Shown: positions 1 through 27,800, counted from the first letter of the stretch. The stretch is 64,000 nucleotides of DNA from an uncultured Bacilli bacterium (GCA_934131005.1 CAKOYV010000001.1:79868-143867); one strand, 5' to 3'. Notes: generated by a model not told the origin, from the letters alone. Translations and numbers: made by a program.

Positions 1-279
1 ATAATTACTAGAAATAGCCGCCTCTAAGCCTTTTTCTAACTGAGGTACTAAATACTCTTCATTATTTGAATGCTGATTAACAACCTCTAAAGATAAATCA
101 GCCTCTCCCGCAGTACCTGCTATACTATTATTACTAGCTGTTAAAGCATAATAAGCATATGTTCCACCAGTTACTAACAATGCATAACAAAATATTCCTA
201 TAATTATTAAGCTAACTCTCTTTAGTTTAAGAATTTTGACCCCCCCCCAATTAACTTTTGGTTTATAATTATTTATCAT
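1..279 (-). CDS. 5' fragment of a SipW-signal/TasA-like + DUF285 surface protein paralog (runs off the window edge); ATG at 279 is out of frame with the signal peptide because of the G9 tract
   Basis: Positions 1-300 are about 90% identical to 19380-19690, the 5' end of the 17691-19665 gene. Minus strand reads GAGGT-N6-ATG ATA AAT AAT TAT AAA CCA AAA GTT AAT T-G9-TC AAA..., followed by the hydrophobic signal peptide and a GGTYAYYALTASNN motif. Confidence 0.55.
   Translation of the reverse strand, partial: MINNYKPKVNWGGVKILKLKRVSLIIIGIFCYALLVTGGTYAYYALTASNNSIAGTAGEADLSLEVVNQHSNNEEYLVPQLEKGLEAAISSNY
240..248. repeat. Homopolymer C9 (G9 on coding strand) within the first codons of the paralog
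   Basis: Nine consecutive C read directly; unusual in a genome this AT-rich. Same length and context as the tract at 19625-19633. Confidence 0.9.
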
Positions 280-5902: not shown

Positions 5903-6130
5903 AAAAAAGTACCTCCTAAATATTTATATAATATCACACTTTTCTCCACTTTAAAACCCGTAGTCAAAAATAATTAAATTTCCCTAAGTTTTTTAAATAT
6001 TTAGAAGGATTTTAGCTTTTTACCTAGAACAATATATTTAGAGGGACTAAATTCCCTCTAAACAGAAAGGAGGTAAATTATAGAAAAATTAACTGAAAAA
6101 GAAAGGTTAATTCCTTTAACCAAAGACTTT

Positions 6131-6994
6131 ATGTTTAAGCATATCTTTACCAACAATCCAGATATCCTAAAAAAATTCTTAATTGATGTTCTAAAACTAG
6201 ATATCAACCCTAACCTAGCTACTATCATTATCGAAAATAACGAACTTACTAAATCTAGGGAAAAAGAATATCAAAAGAACGTTGATATCTATGTTTCTAT
6301 TAATAATAACTTAAGAATTGATATTGAAGTAAACTCTGAAAAATTTAGCTCTATTAAAGCAAGAAATGTCTTATATTTAAATAAAATTGCTATTGATACA
6401 ACTGAATCAGGCTTTACTTATCAAAAAATGAACAAACAATATTTCTACCAACTAAACTTAAATGCTCATAAATCTGATAAATATTTAGACGAAGAATACC
6501 TACTCGTCTCTACAAATAAACACCAAATCTTACTAGATAATTATAAAATCATTTGCAAATCTCTTGATTATTACAAAGAACTTTATTATAATCAAGGTAA
6601 GAATTCAAGCAAAGATGTAATATGGTTATCTTTACTTGGAGCAAATAATTTTAATGAATTAGAGGAGATGGCAAGTTTAGTTATGGATGAAAATGAGAAA
6701 AACAAGTTTGTAAGTGAATGCAAAGATTCTAGTAAAAACACTAAATGGTTATCTGAATGGGGAACAGAATACTTTGCCGAAATGGTGAAACAAAACGTTA
6801 TCGAAGATGCTAAACAAGAAGGATTGCAAGAAGGATTACAAGAAGGATTAGAAAAAGGAATTAATCAAACAAAAACAGAAATGGTAAAAAAGTTATTAGA
6901 GCAAAAAGTATCTTATGAAATTATCGCTACCTCTGCATCAATTTCTGTTAAAGATGTAAAAAAGATAGAAAAATCCATACAAACTGGAGATTAA
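6131..6994 (+). CDS. Rpn/YhgA-like PD-(D/E)XK nuclease-family putative transposase (TIGR01784-like)
   Basis: N-terminus FKHIFTNNPDILKKFLIDVL and C-terminal QEGLQEGLQEGLEKG repeat are typical of this family. A strong SD (AAAGGAGG at 6066-6073) sits far upstream of the ATG with the frame open from 6077, so the true start may be a non-ATG codon near 6080. Confidence 0.6.
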   Translation: MFKHIFTNNPDILKKFLIDVLKLDINPNLATIIIENNELTKSREKEYQKNVDIYVSINNNLRIDIEVNSEKFSSIKARNVLYLNKIAIDTTESGFTYQKMNKQYFYQLNLNAHKSDKYLDEEYLLVSTNKHQILLDNYKIICKSLDYYKELYYNQGKNSSKDVIWLSLLGANNFNELEEMASLVMDENEKNKFVSECKDSSKNTKWLSEWGTEYFAEMVKQNVIEDAKQEGLQEGLQEGLEKGINQTKTEMVKKLLEQKVSYEIIATSASISVKDVKKIEKSIQTGD

Positions 6995-7021
6995 CTCTAT
7001 CTTTTTTTCTATTAATATTAC

Positions 7022-7456
7022 CTACTTTTTTCTACATTTATTATTTTTAATTAATTTCAAAATTCCAACAGAAACAGTATTATTCAAAACATCCTTATTA
7101 TTCTTACCTTTACGATTATTAGACTTAATAATCGCCTCATTAATTTCTAGTATACTACTATAATAATATCTATTAATAACCTCATCACTAATATTACCAT
7201 CACTCATCATATATTTAACTACCTCAAAATATTTAGAACAAGCTGTAAAAAAGCCAAATTTAAACCACGCTACATCTATTTCTCCTTCACCAAAACAATC
7301 ATTAATATAAAATTCCACATCAAAAAATATTTGTCCAACATCTACATAATAATTTTGCCTTTTCATATCCCTAATATATGAAATTCCATCCAAAAATCCC
7401 TTTTTATAGGATACATCACCAAATGTTTCTATCTTCTCTATTTTCACCCAAAACAC
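7022..7456 (-). CDS. Hypothetical protein
   Basis: 144-aa ORF convergent with the Rpn-like gene; no recognisable motif. Confidence 0.3.
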   Translation of the reverse strand: MFWVKIEKIETFGDVSYKKGFLDGISYIRDMKRQNYYVDVGQIFFDVEFYINDCFGEGEIDVAWFKFGFFTACSKYFEVVKYMMSDGNISDEVINRYYYSSILEINEAIIKSNNRKGKNNKDVLNNTVSVGILKLIKNNKCRKK

Positions 7457-7492
7457 ATCCTTTATTTAAATTTTAAAACGTTATACTATTTC

Positions 7493-8254
7493 CTATCCAT
7501 TTAAAAATTTTAATAGCATAAATAAAATTCCTATCACAAAAAACACCTTAGTCAAACGATTATAATTATACCTAAAAGAAGTAGGCAATAATTCAGACAG
7601 AGAAATTTCTAACATAATTCCTGCAATTAATGAAAATAACAATCCTAGTATAAAATCATTAATATAATTTATTAGAAAAAAATAAGTTATCAAAGCTCCA
7701 AAAGGCTCCGACAAAGCCGACACTAAAGTATAGAAAAATGCTCTAGCTCTACTTCCCGTAGCATAATATATAGGAACTGATATAGAAATACCCTCAGGGA
7801 TATTATGAAGAGCTATAGCAAAAGCTAAAGATGCCCCTAAAGAAATACTCTTAGTAGTAGAAATAAAAGTAGCTATTCCCTCAGGAATATTATGCATAAC
7901 AATAGCAATCATAGAAATAATTCCCACCTTATATAAAGATTTACCACCACTATCAGATAAATCAGGAACCACCCGTTCTATACCAATTGATAAAAATATT
8001 CCCACCATCACAAACAAAAAACACAACAATACTCGTACCACTTCGCCTATACCATCAAGCATTGATAAAGCTTCCGGAATAAGATCTGTAATGGAAACAC
8101 ATAACATAACTCCAGATGCAAAAGCAAGCGAACCAGCTACTACTCTATCTTTATTAGATGTTCTAACAAAAATAAAAAAAGTTCCTATCATAGTAGAAAG
8201 ACCAGCTAATATAGTTAATAAAAATGCTATCTTAATATTCATCATTATCACCAT
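7493..8254 (-). CDS. zupT: ZIP-family zinc transporter
   Basis: Eight TM segments, duplicated HNIPEG motif, histidine-rich loop. Confidence 0.8.
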   Translation of the reverse strand: MVIMMNIKIAFLLTILAGLSTMIGTFFIFVRTSNKDRVVAGSLAFASGVMLCVSITDLIPEALSMLDGIGEVVRVLLCFLFVMVGIFLSIGIERVVPDLSDSGGKSLYKVGIISMIAIVMHNIPEGIATFISTTKSISLGASLAFAIALHNIPEGISISVPIYYATGSRARAFFYTLVSALSEPFGALITYFFLINYINDFILGLLFSLIAGIMLEISLSELLPTSFRYNYNRLTKVFFVIGILFMLLKFLNG

Positions 8255-16345: not shown

Positions 16346-16831
16346 TTATAAATTAAATAAATATAAATTCTCTTTATATTCCATATTATCAAGTTTAAAA
16401 CAACAAGTGTCAATCTGTTTACCACCACATTTTTCATAAAATTTAGTTGCGGAATTTTCTTGTAGAGTACTAATTAAAACATTATCATAAATACCTTTAA
16501 GTTTGGTAAATGAATATTCAAGCAACTTTCTTCCAATACCTCTTTTTTGATATTGAGAGTCTATATATAAAGCATACACTTCTGCATATTTTTCATTATA
16601 GCCTTTTTTGTTTTTTCCACATCTAAGGAAGCCAACCACTTTATTTTCTATCTCACAAACTATGTACTCATTTATTTTATTTTTGCACTTTTCTATACTT
16701 TCTGATTTTTTTTGTTCTAATTTTTCCAAAAATTCATTTGGAAATATCCCATGATAAGTTTTTACCCAACCATTAATATTAATATTTACTATACTTTCCG
16801 CATCTTGTTCTTTTGCTTCTCTAATTATCAT
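16346..16831 (-). CDS. GNAT-family N-acetyltransferase
   Basis: QKRGIGRKLLEY acetyl-CoA-binding motif. Confidence 0.7.
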   Translation of the reverse strand: MIIREAKEQDAESIVNININGWVKTYHGIFPNEFLEKLEQKKSESIEKCKNKINEYIVCEIENKVVGFLRCGKNKKGYNEKYAEVYALYIDSQYQKRGIGRKLLEYSFTKLKGIYDNVLISTLQENSATKFYEKCGGKQIDTCCFKLDNMEYKENLYLFNL

Positions 16832-17157: not shown

Positions 17158-17451
17158 TTATGTTGGTGATAATGGAACAGCTTTTATAGGCCAATTGCCT
17201 TTATATATGTCAAAAATTTTCTTTACTGCTTCTTCACTAACTTTTTTTCCTTTATAATTATTTAGAACAAACATTTCACTTATTTCGTAATTATTTTCTG
17301 AATTGTCGTCTACTAATACAAATTCTAAAATATCATTGCCTGATTTAATAAAATATGCATAATCATTATCAAAATATTTATTCAAATCATATTCACATAC
17401 TTTTGAGTCAAAAGTAATTGGAAAATATAAACTTAAATCATGTAAATACAA
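17158..17451 (-). pseudogene. Short GNAT-like ORF with TTG start; possible remnant. The ORF-free 16860-17157 region carries an APH/kinase-like remnant (..IIDFDFS..).
   Basis: GNAT-like C-terminal pattern (FVLNNYKGKK) but only 97 aa, no ATG and no SD. Confidence 0.25.
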
Positions 17452-17690
17452 TTATAATAATTTTTCTTAATTTGTCCTTTCACTAGATGTTACTTTTTCT
17501 ACACTAATATCCATTTTTCCCTCCTCATTTTTTAGTGCTTCATTATTTTAATAAAAAAAGGGGGGACACAAAACAAGGTCCTCCTCCTCCAAAAATATTA
17601 ATAATAAAACACTAATTGAATTTAATTGAGATTTATTTTACCATTTTTTTCAACTATGTCAATATTTTTAATCTAAACTATAACTTACCT

Positions 17691-19665
17691 TCAAGATTTA
17701 ACAATAATATTACTACTACTAACTCCCGTAAAATTCTTATCAAGTATCCAATTCTTCTCAACTTCAGACTTAACATAAATAGTAGGTGTTTTTTTAGTTT
17801 TTATAAAATCATTATATGAATTAACTGTATTAAAATCAAAACCTGTTAAATCTAAAACTAAATTATCACTTTCATACCCTGTTCCACTAAACATATATGT
17901 TACATCAGTAACATTTGAAGTATCAAACTTATCATTCAATTTTAAAGAGAAATTTTCACTATTAAATCCTGTTTGGAAAAACATCCATCGCATTTTTGTG
18001 ACATTAGAAGTATCAAATTTATCACCTAAATCAAAAGTAAAATTACGACTAGAATAACCAACTTCCTTAAACATATACTCCATATTTGTAACATTAGAGG
18101 TATCAAATTTATCTCCCAAATCAAGTGTAAAATTAGAAGAATTTTTCCCAACATTTGCAAACATATTAGCCATATTTTTTACATTTGAAGTATTAAACTT
18201 ATCTCCTAAATTTAGTTGAAAAACCTTACTATTAGTACCACAGCCGCTAAACATCCCCCACATATCAGTGACATTAGATGTATCAAACTTACTTCCTAAA
18301 TCTAGAGAAAAAACTTCACTATTAGTACCACAACCATTAAAAAAATAAAACATATTTATCACATTATGTGTATCAAATTTATCTCCCAAATTAAGAGTAA
18401 AATTTTTAGCATTATTCCCTGTTCCAGCAAACATTCTCTCCATATTTGTTACACTAGATGTATCAAATCTATCACCCAAATCTAAAGTAAATACATCACT
18501 TACATTGCCAGTCGACCAAAACATCATATCCATATTTTTTACATTTTTAGTATTAAATTTATCACCTAAATCCAAAGTAAAAACAGAATCATTCTTACCA
18601 GTATTATAAAACATACCATTCATATAAATAACATTTCTTGTATCAAACTTATTACCTAGATTAAGAACAAAAACTGAACTACTACTTCCTAATTCTCTAA
18701 ACATATCTCTCATAGTTGTAGTTTGAATTGTATTTAAATTATCAAAAGATATACTATCTACCTTTGTCATATTTTGAAAAAATTTAGATAAATCTTTAGC
18801 ATATATTTCCTTCTTACTTCCTATATATAAATCATAATATCCATCACTACTATTATTATTAAGCCATGCTACTATACTATTATCCCCTAACTCTGATGCA
18901 TCCCACTGTACAACAGCATTACTTGTATCTATATAATCAACAAATGAAACATTCTTAATCTTTTCTCTATATTCATCACTTCTAAAAGTATCAGCACTTA
19001 TATTTTTCATATAATTAAACTCTCCAACCGTAGAAGTTACACCCGTTCCATTTGATGAAGAGAAATCAATCGTTGCATTATATTTTCCTGTATCTGGTTG
19101 ATTTTTATCTACTTCATCTATCCAAATAACCATATAATAAGTCTTTGATGCTCCCTTTCTCAAAGTTAAATCACTATCAAATCTAGCATCATCTAAACTA
19201 GCATAATGACTACTATACTTACCATAAGTATTTTTATCTTGAATAAGTCGCCATTTCAAGTTTGGCATTTTATCTATATTTCCAAAAGTTATAGTACCAT
19301 TTATTTTAACAGTAGCTGTCCCCGTATTAGTTATTTTAATAGAGTAAACTTGACAAACCGTATTATTATTATCATCAACACAATTATAATTACTAGAAAT
19401 GGCCGTTGCTAAGCCTTTTTCTAATTGAGGTACTAAATACTCTTCATTATTTGGATGTTGATTAACAACCTCTAAAGATAAATCAGCCTCTCCAGCAGTA
19501 CCGGCAATACTATTATTACTAGCTGTTAAGGCATAATAAGCATACGTTCCACCAGTTATCAACAACGCATAACAAAATATCCCTATAATTATTAAGCTAA
19601 CTCTCTTTAGTTTAAGACTTTTGACCCCCCCCCGAATTAACTTTTAGTTTATAATCATTCATCAT
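17691..19665 (-). CDS. Surface protein: SipW-type signal peptide + TasA-like domain + DUF285 repeats; annotated ATG (19665) is frameshifted relative to the body by the G9 tract
   Basis: About nine roughly 22-aa repeats LxLGDKFDTSNVTxMxxMF (DUF285-type). N-terminus GGTYAYYALTASNN...CVDDNNNTVCQVYSIKITN parallels the tandem paralogs at 22889-27800. GAGGT-N6-ATG ATG AAT GAT TAT AAA CTA AAA GTT AAT TC-G9-TCAAAAGTC; the signal-peptide frame begins after the tract. Confidence 0.6.
19625..19633. repeat. Homopolymer C9 (G9 on coding strand) in codons 11-14 of the DUF285 gene
   Basis: With G9 the ATG frame terminates after 17 codons (MMNDYKLKVNSGGGQKS*); G8 would fuse the ATG to the signal peptide and full ORF. 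Confidence 0.9.
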
Positions 19666-19756
19666 AAGTATACCTCTATTCCACTTATTTTCTTACCATA
19701 ATAATACCACATTTTACCAAAAATTAAAAATGTATTTCTCACTTTCTAAAAATAAA

Positions 19757-20962
19757 TTATTTCTTTTTCTTACGCTTTTTTTTCTTTCTACTCTTACTAC
19801 TAGAAATCATTTTTAACGAAATAAGCATCAAAATAATACTAATAGCAATAATACTATAAATAACTGGATGATAATATTTAAGATTTTCATTCAAATAAAC
19901 ATCATAACTAACTAAAAGCTTATCATTATATTTAACATCAACAACCCCTAATTTATCACCTTTCTTATTCTTATAATTAATCTCTTCAAGTCCCTTATAA
20001 TCATAACTAAGATCATCAGTACTAATACTCTTTTTCAAATACTTACTAACATCCTTATCACTCTTAGCCTCATAAATTTTCTTCTTTCCCCATTTAACTT
20101 TAATTTTCTTAAGTAATTGCCCCTCTTTTATAACTTTTTTATAACCATAATTTTTATCATAATAATTATATATTTCTAACGAATCACGAACAGCGTTTGA
20201 TTTAACTGTAGGTGATGCCCCTAGAACCACTAACATATAATTAACATCACTATAATTAGCAATCGATGCCAAACATAAACCAGCACCATCAGTAAATCCA
20301 CTCTTAGCCCCTTTAATATTATCAACATTCATCGTTTTACCATAAGTAAGTAAAGTACTCTTTAAAGTCAAATTCAAACTAGCTATTTTATATCTTTTCG
20401 TTGTATAAACTTTCTTAAAAGTATCATTTTTTAAAGCATATGAAAGCAACTTACCTAAATCACTAGCCGTTGAATAATTATTCTTAGAATCCATTCCAAT
20501 AGGATTATCAAATTCCGTATCCTTAAGTCCTATCTTTTTAGCCTCTTCATTCATTAAACTAACAAACTTAGCCTTCCCCCCAAAAGCATTAATTGCAATA
20601 GCATTAACAGCATCAGCTCCACTAGGAAGAAGCACCCCATACAAAAGATCCATAATACTAACCTTATCTCCAACCTTAAAACCTGCCTGAGCATAATCTT
20701 CTATTCCCTTAAGCGTCCTATTATCAATAACAACCTGCTTATTCAAATCATCAGATTTCTCAATAGCAACAATTGCTGTCATAATCTTAGTTAAACTAGC
20801 AATCTCCACCTTTTCATTACTATTTTTCTCATATATTACTTCATTATCATTCATGTTGTATAAAATAACATTCTTACTAGTAATATCAAAATCTTGAGCC
20901 CAAACATTACAACTACCAACAAAAAAAATAAATAACATTAATAATATCTTATTCTTCTTCAT
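19757..20962 (-). CDS. D-alanyl-D-alanine carboxypeptidase (peptidase S11, DacB/DacF-like)
   Basis: Signal peptide, SLTK (SxxK) active-site motif, C-terminal TM anchor plus a poly-Lys tail. Confidence 0.8.
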   Translation of the reverse strand: MKKNKILLMLFIFFVGSCNVWAQDFDITSKNVILYNMNDNEVIYEKNSNEKVEIASLTKIMTAIVAIEKSDDLNKQVVIDNRTLKGIEDYAQAGFKVGDKVSIMDLLYGVLLPSGADAVNAIAINAFGGKAKFVSLMNEEAKKIGLKDTEFDNPIGMDSKNNYSTASDLGKLLSYALKNDTFKKVYTTKRYKIASLNLTLKSTLLTYGKTMNVDNIKGAKSGFTDGAGLCLASIANYSDVNYMLVVLGASPTVKSNAVRDSLEIYNYYDKNYGYKKVIKEGQLLKKIKVKWGKKKIYEAKSDKDVSKYLKKSISTDDLSYDYKGLEEINYKNKKGDKLGVVDVKYNDKLLVSYDVYLNENLKYYHPVIYSIIAISIILMLISLKMISSSKSRKKKKRKKKK

Positions 20963-22888: not shown

Positions 22889-23623
22889 TTAATCAAATGT
22901 TGCTTTAATTTCATTACCCTCAGCCGTTACAAACGTAGCTTCTCCATTAAATACATGTTCCATTCCCTGCATATAATCTTGAGAAGTACCATCATCATAA
23001 ATCCATATCATAACATAAAAATCTCTACTAGTTGCCACTTCTAAACCACTCTTATCTGCACCACCAATTTGTTCATTAGAAACAAACAAACAATCATAAT
23101 CATCTTTATGATTAAAACCACCTTCATTACCATTTCTAGAACCAGTCTTAATCACTGCTCTCTCATCAAAACTATCATCCTTAAAATCGTCTGTCGTATA
23201 CTTAGTTGTAAATATTTCCTTATCTTCCGATACTTTTTTAGGATAAACTCTAGTAAATCTAGCCTCTACGCCATCCTTTGTCTCAAAAGTTATATAACCA
23301 TCAACAAAAAACACATCATCTTCGCCACCACTAACAGTAATTTTATATATTTGACATCCAGCATTGTTATTATCATCTAAACACAACTGTTCAGATGCAT
23401 GTGGGGCTTCACTATTTTTCATTGGAACTAAACCATTTATTATATCAGCCATTGTTACCCTTGAAATAGCCATACTAAAACTAGTTGTTTCACTTCGTCC
23501 TCTAACAGTATTTCCATCTTGACTACTAGCTGCAAAATAAGCAAATGTAGCCCCTATTATTATAATTGACAAAACCATACAACCAACAAACAAATAAAAC
23601 ATTTTCTTATTACTATTATTCAT
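22889..23623 (-). CDS. TasA/camelysin-like secreted protein with SipW-type signal peptide (divergent, short member)
   Basis: IIIGATFAYFAAS after a K-rich n-region and hydrophobic core; CLDDNNNAGCQIYKITV; C-terminal ...ATFD. Confidence 0.55.
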   Translation of the reverse strand: MNNSNKKMFYLFVGCMVLSIIIIGATFAYFAASSQDGNTVRGRSETTSFSMAISRVTMADIINGLVPMKNSEAPHASEQLCLDDNNNAGCQIYKITVSGGEDDVFFVDGYITFETKDGVEARFTRVYPKKVSEDKEIFTTKYTTDDFKDDSFDERAVIKTGSRNGNEGGFNHKDDYDCLFVSNEQIGGADKSGLEVATSRDFYVMIWIYDDGTSQDYMQGMEHVFNGEATFVTAEGNEIKATFD

Positions 23624-23644
23624 AGCATCACCCTATTCTAAAAA

Positions 23645-23673
23645 CATTATAACAAATAGGCACTAAAAAAACA
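23645..23673 (-). promoter_or_regulatory. Sigma-A-type promoter of the 22889-23623 gene
   Basis: TTGTTT-N17-TATAAT on the minus strand, followed by AGGGTGAT-ATG. Confidence 0.5.
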
Positions 23674-23705
23674 ATACAAGACTTAATTTTTGTATTGTTT
23701 TTAAA

Positions 23706-24665
23706 TTATTGACCAACTCTTTGATCAGATGGAACAGTAGTATATCCACCAAATGTAGCACTTACCTCTCCACCTTGTGCAGAATTAAATGTTACAGTAC
23801 CACTAAAGAAATTATTAGCAGCTGTACTACTACCAGTAGTATCAATAGTTTGATTAGTACCAGTCTCATGTAACCATACAACTATATATAGAATACTAAC
23901 ATTTTTATTAGTAGTATCTCCTTGTGGCTTCAAATATTGATTATATACTAAAGCATCTGCCATATCTTTAGCTCTATCATACTTACCACTAACATGCTTA
24001 CTAGTTCTAATATAATTAGTACTAATAATTTGTCTACTATTACCAGCAAAAGCAGCATTATCTGTAACAGTATTCAAATATCCACCAGCAGTTGAATAAA
24101 TTTTAGTCTTACTCATACCAGTAGCATCTGCTTTATTATCCAAATTAGCAAAAGTTTTTTCTGTATCAGCATTCAAAGCCGTCGTACCACCCGTAGAATA
24201 AGTATTACCAGTTTTAAATACTTGTGCCCATCTCATAGTAGTCTTAGCCGTTGTATCATCTGTTGAAGTACCTGTCTCAGTATTATTAGTCAAAGTAACA
24301 TAACCATCCAAGAACATACTAGCACTTGATTCGTTAGTTAAAGTTATTTTATATATCTGACAAACTGAGTTTCCATTATCATCAACACACGCTTTAGAAT
24401 GTTTAACTGCTTGTTCAACCATTGTATTAGACATTGGTATTAAACCACCATTAGTCTGATCAGTACTCTCATCTCTTTCAACTTTCAATCCAAAGTTAAT
24501 TGTAGCAGCATTACCCGTTAAAGTCGTTGTATTAGTTTGAGTTGCCATAAAGTATGCAAATGTTGCTCCTACAACTGCAACAACTAACGTAAGAATAGCT
24601 ACAACTATATATATTATTCCTTTTCTATCTCTTCCATTATCACTCATTGCTATCCTCCTTACCAT
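23706..24665 (-). CDS. TasA/camelysin-like secreted protein, SipW-type signal peptide (tandem paralog 2)
   Basis: VGATFAYFMATQTN; INFGLKVER; CVDDNGNSVCQIYKITLTN; conserved C-terminus LYIVVWLHETGTNQTI...TVTFNSAQGGEVSATFGGYTTVPSDQ. Confidence 0.6.
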   Translation of the reverse strand: MVRRIAMSDNGRDRKGIIYIVVAILTLVVAVVGATFAYFMATQTNTTTLTGNAATINFGLKVERDESTDQTNGGLIPMSNTMVEQAVKHSKACVDDNGNSVCQIYKITLTNESSASMFLDGYVTLTNNTETGTSTDDTTAKTTMRWAQVFKTGNTYSTGGTTALNADTEKTFANLDNKADATGMSKTKIYSTAGGYLNTVTDNAAFAGNSRQIISTNYIRTSKHVSGKYDRAKDMADALVYNQYLKPQGDTTNKNVSILYIVVWLHETGTNQTIDTTGSSTAANNFFSGTVTFNSAQGGEVSATFGGYTTVPSDQRVGQ

Positions 24666-24671
24666 GTATTA

Positions 24672-24719
24672 AGTATACCAAAAAAGCAAGAAAAAAACAA
24701 CACAAAATTTGCATTGTTT
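24672..24719 (-). promoter_or_regulatory. Terminator hairpin plus embedded promoter between paralogs (same layout at 25691-25738 and 26733-26761)
   Basis: Hairpin AAACAA(C/T)ACAAA-ATTT-G(C/T)ATTGTTT with a U-run on the minus strand. The 3' arm TTGTTT serves as the -35, then N17, then TATACT, then SD AAGGAGG-ATG. Confidence 0.5.
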
Positions 24720-24727
24720 AAATCAAT

Positions 24728-25663
24728 TTACTGTTGATCAGATGGAACAGTAGTATAACCACTAAATGTAGCACTTACCTCTCCACCTTGTGCTGAATTA
24801 AACGTTACAGTACCACTAAAGAAATTCTTAGCAGCCTCTTGATTACCAGTAGTATCAATAGTTTGATTAGTACCAGTCTCATGTAACCACACAACTATAT
24901 ATAATTCACTTTTATTCTTACCATCTTGGGTATTAGTAGATTTTAAATATTGATCATACACTAAAGCATCAGCTAAATCACTCGTTCTATCATACTTACT
25001 ATCCGGCTTATGTTGACTAGTCCTAATATAATTAGTACTAATTATATCTCTAGAATTACCAGCAAAATTAGCTGTATCTGTAACAGTATTTAAATAGCCA
25101 TCACCACTTGCATAAATCATATTCTTACTCATTCCTGTAAGATCACTCTTATTATCCAAAGAATTTATTGTCTTCTCACTATCAGCATTCAAAGTTGTTG
25201 TACCACCAGTAGAATAAGTATTACCACTTTTAAATACTTGTGCCCATCTCATAGTAGTACCAGCACTAGCTAAATCAGTAGATTTACCAGTCTCAGTTTT
25301 ACTACTCAAAGTAACGTAACCATCCAAGAACATACTAGCACTTGATTGATTAGTTAAAGTAATTTTATATATTTGACAAACTGAGTTTCCATTATCATCC
25401 TTACAAGGCGTTTCTGCTGTTACAGCTTTCTCAACCATTGTATTAGACATTGGAATTAAACCACCATTAGTCTGATCAGTAGTCTCAGCTCTCTCAACAT
25501 CTAATCCAAAATTAATTGATGCCGCATTACCTGTAATTGTATCATCATTAGTTTGTGTTGCTGTAAAATATGCAAAAGTAGCTCCTATTATAGCAACTAT
25601 TAATGTAGCAATTCCAATCACACCATAAAACAAACCTTTTCCGTTATAATGATTACCATCCAT
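24728..25663 (-). CDS. TasA/camelysin-like secreted protein (tandem paralog 3)
   Basis: Same conserved N- and C-terminal blocks; variable Ser/Thr-rich core. Confidence 0.6.
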   Translation of the reverse strand: MDGNHYNGKGLFYGVIGIATLIVAIIGATFAYFTATQTNDDTITGNAASINFGLDVERAETTDQTNGGLIPMSNTMVEKAVTAETPCKDDNGNSVCQIYKITLTNQSSASMFLDGYVTLSSKTETGKSTDLASAGTTMRWAQVFKSGNTYSTGGTTTLNADSEKTINSLDNKSDLTGMSKNMIYASGDGYLNTVTDTANFAGNSRDIISTNYIRTSQHKPDSKYDRTSDLADALVYDQYLKSTNTQDGKNKSELYIVVWLHETGTNQTIDTTGNQEAAKNFFSGTVTFNSAQGGEVSATFSGYTTVPSDQQ

Positions 25664-25746
25664 TCTCTCATCCTCCTCTATTATGAAATAAGTATATCAA
25701 AAAAGGAAGAAAAAAACAATACAAAATTTGTATTGTTTAAATTAAT

Positions 25747-26706
25747 TTATTGTTGGTCAGATGGAACAGTAGTGTATCCATTGAATGTAGCACTAACCTC
25801 TCCGCCTTGTGCAGAGTTAAATGTTACAGTACCAGTAAAGAAATTCTTGGCAGCTTCTGCATTACCAGTAGTATCAATAGTTTGGTTAGTTCCTGTCTCA
25901 TGTAACCATACAACTATATATAATTCATTTTTATTCTTACCATCTTGAGTACTAGCAGATTTTAAATATTGGTCATATACTAAAGCATCTGATAAATCTC
26001 CTGTTCTAGTATATTTATTATTTCCTTCTCCAGCTTTTACATGCTTACTAGTTCTAATATAGTTCTTATTTATAACTTCTCTTTTATTTCCAGCAAAAGT
26101 AGTATTTTCACTATCAGTAACTGCACTTAAATATTCTCCACCAGCTGAGTTATAAATATTTTTCTTATTCATACCAGTAGTATCAGTAGCATTATCAATA
26201 TTAGCAATTTGAACTTCTGTATCAGCATTCAAAGTTGTTGTACCACCAGTAGAATAAGTTTCACCACTTTTAAATACTTGTGCCCATCTCATAGTAGTAT
26301 TAGTAGCAGAAGTATCATCAGTAGAAGTTCCTGTAGCAGTTGCATTTGTCAAAGTTACATAACCATCCAAGAACATACTAGCAGTTGATTCATTAGTCAA
26401 AGTAATTTTATATATTTGACAAACTGAGTTTCCGTTATCATCCTTACAAGGAGTTGTAGCTGTTACAGCTTTCTCAACCATTGTATTAGACATTGGAATT
26501 AAACCACCATTAGTCTGGTCAGTAGTTTCAGCTCTTTCTACTTTTAAACCAAAGTTAATTGATGCAGCATTACCAGTAATAGTATTATCATTAGTTTGTG
26601 TAGCTGTAAAGTATGCAAAAGTAGCACCAATTATAGCAACAACTAATGTAGCAACACCAATTACACCATAAAATATTCCTCTTCCTTTCTTATTTTCATT
26701 ATTCAT
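25747..26706 (-). CDS. TasA/camelysin-like secreted protein (tandem paralog 4)
   Basis: Same blocks; variable core. Confidence 0.6.
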   Translation of the reverse strand: MNNENKKGRGIFYGVIGVATLVVAIIGATFAYFTATQTNDNTITGNAASINFGLKVERAETTDQTNGGLIPMSNTMVEKAVTATTPCKDDNGNSVCQIYKITLTNESTASMFLDGYVTLTNATATGTSTDDTSATNTTMRWAQVFKSGETYSTGGTTTLNADTEVQIANIDNATDTTGMNKKNIYNSAGGEYLSAVTDSENTTFAGNKREVINKNYIRTSKHVKAGEGNNKYTRTGDLSDALVYDQYLKSASTQDGKNKNELYIVVWLHETGTNQTIDTTGNAEAAKNFFTGTVTFNSAQGGEVSATFNGYTTVPSDQQ

Positions 26707-26852
26707 TATTATCTATCCTCCTTACTGTAACAAGTATAACAAATTTAATTTTAAAAGACAATATCTTTTTCACATTTTAAAAAAAAATTTATCTAAACAT
26801 CAAAAAAGAATACATATTTCTATGTACACTTTTTATCATAAACTAAATATTA

Positions 26853-27800
26853 TTATTGTGTTCTTGAAGTATCAGATGGAACAGTAGTATAACCACTAAA
26901 TGTAGCACTAACCTCTCCACCTTGCGCAGAGTTAAATGTTACAGTACCAGTGAAGAAGCCATCAGTTTGTCCACCTTCAGCAATTGTTTGGTTAGTACCA
27001 GTTTCATGTAACCATACAACTATATATAAATCATTAGTATTAGCATTATCAGCAGAACCCTTTGCTTTCAAATATTGATCATATACTAAAGCATCTGATA
27101 AATCTTTAGTTCTATCATATGAAGCAGCAGTATGTTTGCTAGTTCTAATATAGTTTTTATTGATTATAGTTCTATTATTACCAGCAAAAGCAGCCTCACC
27201 AGTAACAGCACTCAAATACCCATCACCAGTTCCATAAATCTTATCTTTACTCATACCAGTACCATCAGCTTTATTATCAATATTATCAATTTGAACTTCT
27301 GTATCAGCCTTTAATGTTGTTGTACCACCAGTAGAATACTTACTACCGTCATAAAATACTTGTGCCCATCTCATAGTAGTAGGAGCAGAAGTATCATCAG
27401 TAGACGTACCAGTTGCACCAGCAACTGTATCTTTTAAAGTTACATAACCATCCAAGAACATACTAGCAGTTGATTCATTAGTCAAAGTAATTTTATATAT
27501 TTGACAAACTGAGTTTCCGTTATCATCCTTACAAGGCGTTTCTGCTGTTACAGCTTTCTCAACCATTGTATTAGACATCGGAATTAAACCACCATTAGTC
27601 TGATCAGTAGTTTCTGCTCTAGCTACCTTTAAACCAAAGTTAATTGATGCAGCATTACCAGTAATTGTATCCTCATTAGTTTGTGTTGCAGTAAAGTATG
27701 CAAAAGTAGCACCAATAATAGCAACAACTAATGTAGCAACACCAATTACACCATAAAATACTCCTCTTCCTTTCATTTTATTATCATTACTCATTATCAT
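26853..27800 (-). CDS. TasA/camelysin-like secreted protein (tandem paralog 5, promoter-proximal)
   Basis: Same blocks; variable core. Confidence 0.6.
   Translation of the reverse strand: MIMSNDNKMKGRGVFYGVIGVATLVVAIIGATFAYFTATQTNEDTITGNAASINFGLKVARAETTDQTNGGLIPMSNTMVEKAVTAETPCKDDNGNSVCQIYKITLTNESTASMFLDGYVTLKDTVAGATGTSTDDTSAPTTMRWAQVFYDGSKYSTGGTTTLKADTEVQIDNIDNKADGTGMSKDKIYGTGDGYLSAVTGEAAFAGNNRTIINKNYIRTSKHTAASYDRTKDLSDALVYDQYLKAKGSADNANTNDLYIVVWLHETGTNQTIAEGGQTDGFFTGTVTFNSAQGGEVSATFSGYTTVPSDTSRTQ

Follow-up and report, generated by a model that had tools for sequence, protein, structure and literature searches.

A poly-G tract in the leader of a DUF285 gene from an uncultured gut Bacilli bacterium: a probable slipped-strand ON/OFF switch on a shared leader cassette

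The stretch of DNA considered here, 64,000 nucleotides (nt) from an uncultured Bacilli bacterium (GCA_934131005.1 CAKOYV010000001.1:79868-143867) and called the window throughout, contains on its minus strand a gene for a DUF285 protein, the reading frame of which is broken close to the start codon by a run of nine G residues (G9). The question raised by this locus is whether the break is an error of the assembly, a fixed lesion, a site of recoding or a switch. A translational slipped-strand contingency switch, placed on a promoter and leader cassette that is shared with other genes, is the answer to which we give a probability of roughly three in four; as sequenced, the gene in question (the target) would be OFF and a paralog at the left edge of the window would be ON.

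On the coding strand the target reads GAGGT-6 nt-ATG ATG AAT GAT TAT AAA CTA AAA GTT AAT TC-G9-TCAAAAGTC, the sequence 3' of the tract being, in a longer read of the minus strand of 19400-19900, TCAAAAGTCTTAAACTAAAGAGAG. The distance from the ATG at 19665 to G9 is 32 nt, and both the layout of the start site and the position of the tract in codons 11-14 are as described in the original prediction. The tract was replaced in silico by 7 to 12 G and the gene was retranslated each time. G9 gave MMNDYKLKVNSGGGQKS and a stop after 17 codons, G10 a product of 19 codons and G7 one of 18 codons; G8 and G11 gave proteins of 657 and 658 amino acids (aa), respectively, both starting MMNDYKLKVNSGG(G)VKSLKLKRVSLIIIGIFCYALLITGGTYAYYALTASNN, that is, ...NSGG(G)VKSLKLKRVSLIIIGIFCYALLITGGTYAYYALTASNN. 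With the prefix AATTC before the tract, ON is represented by G8 and G11 and OFF by G9 and G10, in agreement with the predicted early stop and with the predicted rescue of a signal peptide and a long open reading frame (ORF). The only later start is the TTG at 19565, the sole point at which, as had been stated, the long ORF begins mechanically; the 624-aa ORF found there is the mechanical remainder of the G8/G11 frame, is devoid of the charged n-region and of most of the hydrophobic core, and would yield a protein with no usable leader. The locus presents a G/C homopolymer of at least 7-8 residues within the 5' coding region, the gain or loss of one unit toggling the gene between the full frame and an early stop without an alternative functional start, as in contingency loci.

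The composition of the DNA does not account for such a run. The G+C content of the window is 28.5%, below the 30% originally given as an upper bound, and its plus strand holds 8.9% G and 19.6% C; from base composition alone, about 0.02 runs of nine or more G are expected on the coding strand per 64 kb. G/C runs of seven or more occur in two places only, 19625-19633 and 240-248, a count that none of 100 dinucleotide-preserving shuffles reached (mean of 1.08 matches). In the 50 long ORFs of the window GGG makes up 11% of the Gly codons, and GGG-GGG was found in 2 of 71 Gly-Gly pairs; since GGG is rare among Gly codons, codon preference would be expected to break up the G run. The GC skew of the window is about -0.38 on the plus strand, 45 of the 51 ORFs of at least 150 aa are on the minus strand, and the poly-G tracts lie on the G-rich strand, presumably the leading one.

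The second of the two runs, on which the original prediction was silent, is found in the leader of the paralog, which reads GAGGT-6 nt-ATG ATA AAT AAT TAT AAA CCA AAA GTT AAT T-G9-TCAAAATTCTTAAACTAAAGAGAG. The 5' regions of target and paralog are about 93% identical. The prefix in the paralog is AATT, one base fewer than the AATTC of the target, and for this reason the same G9 gives ON in the paralog and OFF in the target. The body of the paralog leaves the window at the left edge; its orthologs measure 536 aa (L011).

The alignment of eight distinct leader-bearing genes, from -130 to +170, showed that conservation starts about 75 nt 5' of the ATG and comprises TGGTAAAAT, the Shine-Dalgarno sequence, the ATG, the tract and the signal peptide, and that the bodies diverge after the leader. 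A promoter role of TGGTAAAAT, an extended -10-like motif, is suggested by its occurrence upstream of all eight genes. The sigma-70 and terminator scan of 17400-19900 gave no excess over shuffles and no site in the 19666-19756 spacer, and the Rfam search found tRNA-Cys alone in the window and nothing near the target locus. The cassette precedes bodies of the DUF285, Laminin_G_3 and ALK_LTK_GRD (glycine-rich) types, and in eight or more distinct leader-bearing genes the tract occupies an identical codon position. The more distant relatives of the leader and N-terminal domain possess ordinary Lys-rich n-regions without a Gly-Gly segment, which argues that the tract is a lineage-specific addition at a place where extra Gly is harmless; the divergent leader P0046 retains NSGGV.

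Tract lengths were compared between the window and 11 related gut-metagenome contigs (194 kb), and three more contigs (L015, L016 and L017) were included later. All 16 runs of seven or more G in the 194 kb were found at one position of one leader, and the three later contigs add three runs at the same position; over some 220 kb of window and related contigs, the 18 runs of this length that were counted all stand there, ahead of bodies that differ. Among strains and paralogs the length varies from G8 to G11 with conserved flanks (Table 1); L016, with the AATTC prefix, carries G8. The result that speaks most strongly for a hypermutable tract comes from the paralog locus, where the window and L010 showed no substitution in 6,179 aligned bases, and their sole difference was G9 versus G10. 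No indel besides the tract appeared when sequences around either locus were aligned in pairs over 6-10.5 kb. Full-length ON alleles are present in protein collections as P0016 (657 aa), P0028 (570 aa, NSGGVKS) and P0006 (403 aa, NSGGGVKS). Two other proteins, P0015 and P0017, taken as clean G8 ON alleles, were downgraded on the grounds that the DNA of each has a second 1-nt deletion. The short contigs L015 (1.2 kb) and L016 (0.9 kb) contain one further 1-nt deletion each, at different non-repeat sites; these extra deletions, within L015 404-1205 and L016 36-885, lie about 340 nt into the gene, and P0012 also ends out of frame near there. Both contigs are either low-quality, indel-prone assemblies or independently broken copies, and little weight is given to them.

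The gene is OFF in 11 of the 15 DNA copies, and in most assemblies of the target locus, as it would be if the frameshift were fixed, the gene a pseudogene and the homopolymer merely its break point. This explanation is very unlikely. The ten complete OFF copies all gave an intact ORF of 475-658 codons after the correction of one base, and no OFF copy had any other stop or indel across its 402-658 codons. Among copies each of which is OFF in its assembly, the ratio of nonsynonymous to synonymous substitution rates (dN/dS) of the body was 0.07-0.29, and 1,932 nt aligned free of indels. Intact frames and such ratios rule out simple decay and indicate a gene that stays functional, under purifying selection, despite its OFF states. 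In addition, every paralog retains the tract without interruption, contrary to codon preference, and ON alleles of the same genes exist. An error of sequencing or assembly, with a true tract of G8 and an intact gene, is the most improbable of the explanations. G-homopolymers are difficult for Illumina chemistry (PMC9187656), and both G8 contigs contain the other 1-nt deletions mentioned above, so that some assemblies do have indel errors; against this, G9 with the same flanks was found in the window and in five contigs that come from separate studies and were built by different programs (MEGAHIT k141, SPAdes NODE, METAG scaffolds and an 805-kb contig), the window is identical to L003 over 10.5 kb with G9 included, and the aligned flanks are free of other indels. 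The possibility of an assembly error, raised in the original prediction as what could overturn it, is unlikely with G9 in six assemblies. The claim of a slipped-strand contingency locus, OFF as sequenced, is sustained by the conserved tract, the G8-G11 lengths and the intact, selected OFF frames.

The remaining rival is recoding, in place of DNA switching or in addition to it: RNA polymerase slippage or ribosomal frameshifting on G9 would turn out some in-frame product, and G9 would then mean constitutive low expression where a switch would be fully OFF. In bacteria, RNA polymerase is known to slip on A/T homopolymers about 9 nt long. G9 is, moreover, the modal length at the target locus, divergent strains included, and the commonest overall, whatever the frame. 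We nevertheless consider recoding unlikely: G9 is in frame in the paralog with its AATT prefix, and no single conserved frame relation exists of the kind that a programmed site would need; G10 and G11 alleles exist, and gene prediction treats the G11 allele as an ordinary full-length gene; the tract has neither a stimulatory structure downstream of it nor a slippery heptamer. The effect of the equivalent G-tract of Bifidobacterium breve was attributed to replication slippage at the DNA level (PMC9187656).

A number of observations weigh against the slipped-strand switch and keep its probability where it is. The copies compared are all consensus assemblies, and with paralogs joined inconsistently they had to be assigned to loci through about 100 nt of unique sequence 5' of the tract. 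At the target locus G9 was found in 6 of the 7 contigs with verified upstream context, divergent strains among them; the sole G8 contig there, L015, is the short one with a second deletion, and the sole G10 of the target gene, in L013, stands at a contig end, 9 nt into the contig. The evidence of tract variation comes mainly from the paralogs and is weaker at the target locus. An invariant length, the other finding that the original prediction had named as fatal to it, was very nearly obtained at the target locus; among the paralogs the lengths differ. Finally, the SipW-dependent leader model TIGR04088 gave no match on the target leader even at E<=10, and the surface exposure and secretion route of the protein are presumed.

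In the slipped-strand switch as we propose it, G9 would be a hypermutable homopolymer to which slipped-strand mispairing in replication adds, or from which it removes, G residues. Translation would start from the ATG at 19665 behind a good Shine-Dalgarno sequence, with the tract in the Lys-rich n-region, where an extra Gly may be tolerated. With G8 or G11 the frame would run from this start into the hydrophobic core and on through the 644-codon body (ON), and with G9 or G10 it would meet the early stop (OFF). The switch would belong to the conserved cassette, made up of some 75 upstream nt, the Shine-Dalgarno sequence, the ATG, the tract and the leader, which in this organism and in related ones stands ahead of eight or more genes whose bodies differ; with every copy setting its own tract length, a population could express different subsets of surface proteins. 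We infer that replication slippage is the cause, that switching in a clonal population is frequent and reversible, that the protein is located at the surface after processing of the SipW type, and that a selective agent (host immunity, phage or adhesion) is at work.

The protein restored by G8 or G11 showed matches to Pfam DUF285 (PF03382; E=6.7e-43, 145.7 bits, cut-off 25) and to the NCBIfam PARCEL repeat (TIGR02167; E=3e-17, 62 bits, cut-off 30), both in the C-terminal two thirds. The assignment to DUF285 thus stands, and the description as a surface protein with a secretion leader at its N-terminus is supported. The N-terminal domain (residues ~43-230) has homologs that are secreted proteins in their own right, about 235 aa long, and the product of the window gene at 22889-23623 is one of them. 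Its AlphaFold (AF2) model, with a predicted local distance difference test score (pLDDT) of 67, resembled generic immunoglobulin (Ig)-like sandwiches only, at template modelling (TM) scores of 0.3-0.46; TasA was absent from the 50 top-ranked fold matches (58 had E<=0.001), which is a weak test with a model of modest quality. No PDB sequence match was obtained at E<=1, and the restored protein had no Pfam match to Peptidase_M73/TasA at E<=0.01. The TasA-like family membership originally proposed was rejected, as no Peptidase_M73, PDB, TasA-fold or TIGR04088 match was found; the only SipW-type resemblance of the leader is the GGTYAYY motif, and the cleavage position in Table 1, set by analogy with SipW-type leaders, is approximate.

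Table 1. Features of the target gene and the paralog (window coordinates), and G-tract lengths in the window and related contigs
Feature	Position or contig	Strand	Remark
Poly-G tract of target, G9 on coding strand, C9 on plus strand	19625..19633	-	codons 11-14; proposed slippage site
Open frame in the sequenced G9 state, MMNDYKLKVNSGGGQKS + stop	19612..19665	-	17 codons + TAA
Shine-Dalgarno sequence GAGGT	19672..19676	-	6-nt spacer to ATG 19663-19665; conserved in all leader copies
Extended -10-like motif TGGTAAAAT	19711..19719	-	upstream of 8/8 aligned leader genes; alignment only
Secretion leader coding region	19539..19665	-	Lys-rich n-region with tract, core VSLIIIGIFCYALLI, TGGTYA/YY; translation; cleavage position approximate
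Gene body frame	17691..19625	-	644 codons, GTC at tract end to stop 17691-17693; intact, strain-conserved
N-terminal all-beta domain, ~190 aa	18974..19538	-	CVDDNNNTVCQVY motif; approximate coordinates
DUF285/PARCEL repeat region	17834..18810	-	profile matches; approximate coordinates
Second poly-G tract (G9), same leader, paralog	240..248	-	prefix AATT, G9 in frame (ON)
Paralog, 5' part	1..279	-	ATG 277-279, Shine-Dalgarno GAGGT 286-290, TGGTAAAAT 315-323; reads MINNYKPKVNWGGVKILKLKRVSL...
Target locus, carboxypeptidase upstream, AATTC	window, L003, L004, L005, L012, L017		G9
Target locus, AATTC	L015		G8
Target gene body, AATTC	L013		G10; contig begins 9 nt before tract
Paralog locus, DUF3419 upstream, AATT	window, L009, L011		G9 (ON)
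Paralog locus, AATT	L010		G10 (OFF)
Three tandem DUF285 genes, AATTC	L001, 297-kb Hadza contig		G9, G10, G10 (L001a, L001b, L001c)
Another context, AATTC	L014		G9
Laminin_G_3-type body, AATTC	L002 (L002a)		G11 (ON); full-length protein P0006
ALK_LTK_GRD-type (glycine-rich) body, AATTC	L002 (L002b)		G9

An archaeal/endoplasmic reticulum-type signal peptidase I is encoded three genes downstream of the paralog, just outside the window (L004 11589-12719; also in L010), with 81.9 bits on TIGR02228 (cut-off 51.85) and E=1.6e-15 on the SipW equivalog. The stretch downstream of the paralog (L004 8994-13206, L010 7730-10915) contains, with this signal peptidase I of the archaeal/SipW type (376 aa in total, with an N-terminal extension of about 250 aa), genes for a HerA-like DUF87 ATPase (589 aa), a 217-aa protein and a DUF5305 protein, and it may represent a module devoted to the processing or assembly of proteins with leaders of this family. 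Within the window, 22889-27800 of the minus strand is occupied by five tandem genes (244, 319, 311, 319 and 315 aa) without a Pfam match, the 244-aa one being homologous to the N-terminal domain of the target. Three of them, 22889-23623, 25747-26706 and 26853-27800, reached 16-18.6 bits on TIGR04088, just below the cut-off of 19, and none of the five contains a G/C run of seven or more. In L017, the 805-kb contig of a divergent strain, rve-family and UPF0236 transposase genes (1088-2104 and 6114-7574) lie in or beside a cluster of genes with SipW-type leaders; these insertions do not occur in the window. The 97-aa ORF at 17158-17451 (minus strand) of the window has a partial match to GNAT acetyltransferases and adjoins a complete 161-aa GNAT gene (16346-16831). 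A 120-aa version occupies its position in L014, and both GNAT ORFs are missing from L017; the 97-aa ORF may be a decaying duplicate.

In three contigs (L004 7298-13206, L009 5775-13748 and L014 2898-7872) the upstream context of one paralog is joined to the body and downstream region of another, the joins of L004 and L009 being reciprocal across two direct-repeat paralogs 19.4 kb apart. Real recombination between the paralogs was judged the less likely explanation of L004 and L009, as its deletion form would lose pnp, rpsO, priA, infC, rpmI and rplT; assembly chimeras are the likelier origin of these two joins, and gene conversion is possible. The inconsistency of the three joins indicates that assemblers are misled by the repeated leader or, possibly, recombination among the paralogs. 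It is tempting to speculate, with rather less than even confidence, that the joins of L004, L009 and L014 reflect real shuffling and that the cassette is a modular "phase-variable secretion leader" (promoter, 5' untranslated region, Shine-Dalgarno sequence, ATG, poly-G and SipW-like signal peptide), which recombination has carried, in a spore-forming Firmicute of the gut, to the front of eight or more unrelated bodies of surface proteins. Such a module would amount to combinatorial surface variation in the style of Mycoplasma or Neisseria, with DUF285, laminin-G-like and glycine-rich bodies.

The leader was not found in the species-representative genome collection, searched with protein patterns and with a leader DNA pattern allowing a variable gap. 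In the metagenomes of the Joint Genome Institute (JGI) the leader pattern gave three chance matches, none with a G tract, and the 66-aa leader alone as a protein query gave no candidates, this search being limited by the word index. Gut-metagenome assemblies of the European Nucleotide Archive (ENA), including Hadza samples, contain the leader frequently. In this collection 77 blocks have the neighbouring D-Ala-D-Ala carboxypeptidase gene in their index and 96 have the DUF3419 gene, and related contigs carry SpoIIIAH, CotZ and Germane genes. The sporulation genes together with the occurrence in gut metagenomes identify the host as a low-GC Firmicute that forms spores and lives in the human gut.

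Among gut commensals, most known cases of phase variation involve invertible promoters, as in Bacteroides and Clostridioides difficile. Repeat-driven switches have been documented in pathogens, in Mollicutes and recently in bifidobacteria. A family of secreted proteins switched by poly-G in a common spore-forming gut Firmicute would extend this mode of switching, and the resulting surface diversity within a strain could bear on escape from immunoglobulin A (IgA) or phage, or on adhesion. There is also a practical side. Gene callers place these genes at internal starts or as fragments (624, 503 and 363 aa), so that protein catalogues largely miss the family and its leaders, and the repeated leader breaks or mis-joins metagenome assemblies.

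Among the known systems, those of Neisseria include a poly-G tract in the signal-peptide region of pilC and CTCTT repeats in the leader of opa. The opa genes are similar in forming a multigene family with its own repeat in each leader-peptide coding region and with combinatorial expression; the difference is that Neisseria are Gram-negative pathogens, that the proteins are outer-membrane adhesins and that no homology with the cassette exists. The poly-G loci of Campylobacter jejuni (PMC6321876, PMC8437040) resemble the present ones in their tracts of 8-11, in a genome of ~30% GC and in translational ON/OFF control, and are unlike them in belonging to a Gram-negative pathogen, in serving mostly glycan-modification enzymes and in having no homology with the cassette.

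Closer still are the DUF285 lipoprotein genes of Mycoplasma, which share the DUF285/PARCEL family, a poly-G tract in a low-GC genome at an N-terminal coding position, a secreted surface protein, a predicted frameshift ON/OFF logic and a multi-copy family. Poly-G tracts of up to 13 were reported by Nouvel et al. at the 5' ends of surface lipoprotein genes of M. agalactiae (PMC2824730). These Mycoplasma proteins are, however, lipoproteins of Mollicutes, which have no cell wall, and curation is the only basis on which their switch was proposed; the leader studied here is of a non-lipoprotein kind with a SipW-like GGTYAYY, occurs in a spore-forming gut Firmicute and also precedes non-DUF285 bodies. 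The lipoprotein cassettes of Mycoplasma capricolum (Wise et al. 2006, as cited in PMC2996958) are likewise composed of a conserved 5' module (promoter, repeat and leader) before different bodies, some of them PARCEL. By the same account their repeats are mostly in the 5' flanking (promoter) region and act on transcription, whereas here the repeat is in the coding region and would act on the frame.

In Bifidobacterium breve UCC2003, maximum-depth sequencing demonstrated variation of a G-tract in genes for sortase-dependent pili, and the ON length was enriched in mice (PMC9187656). B. breve is likewise a Gram-positive gut commensal in which a G-tract (G11/G12 in that case) splits an ORF with a Sec signal from the body of a surface protein, the downstream "start codon" has neither a Shine-Dalgarno sequence nor a signal, the reference is annotated OFF, and several loci are found per genome (PMC9187656). 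It differs in being a high-GC actinobacterium with an LPXTG pilin, a tract further into the gene and experimental proof, where the present case is one of comparison only. A poly-G switch is of a well-known kind, its closest precedents being the DUF285 lipoprotein genes of Mycoplasma and the pilus genes of Bifidobacterium, and it has rarely been reported in the bacterial group considered here; what is new is the spore-forming gut Firmicute as host, the non-lipoprotein SipW-like leader and one switch cassette shared by unrelated bodies.

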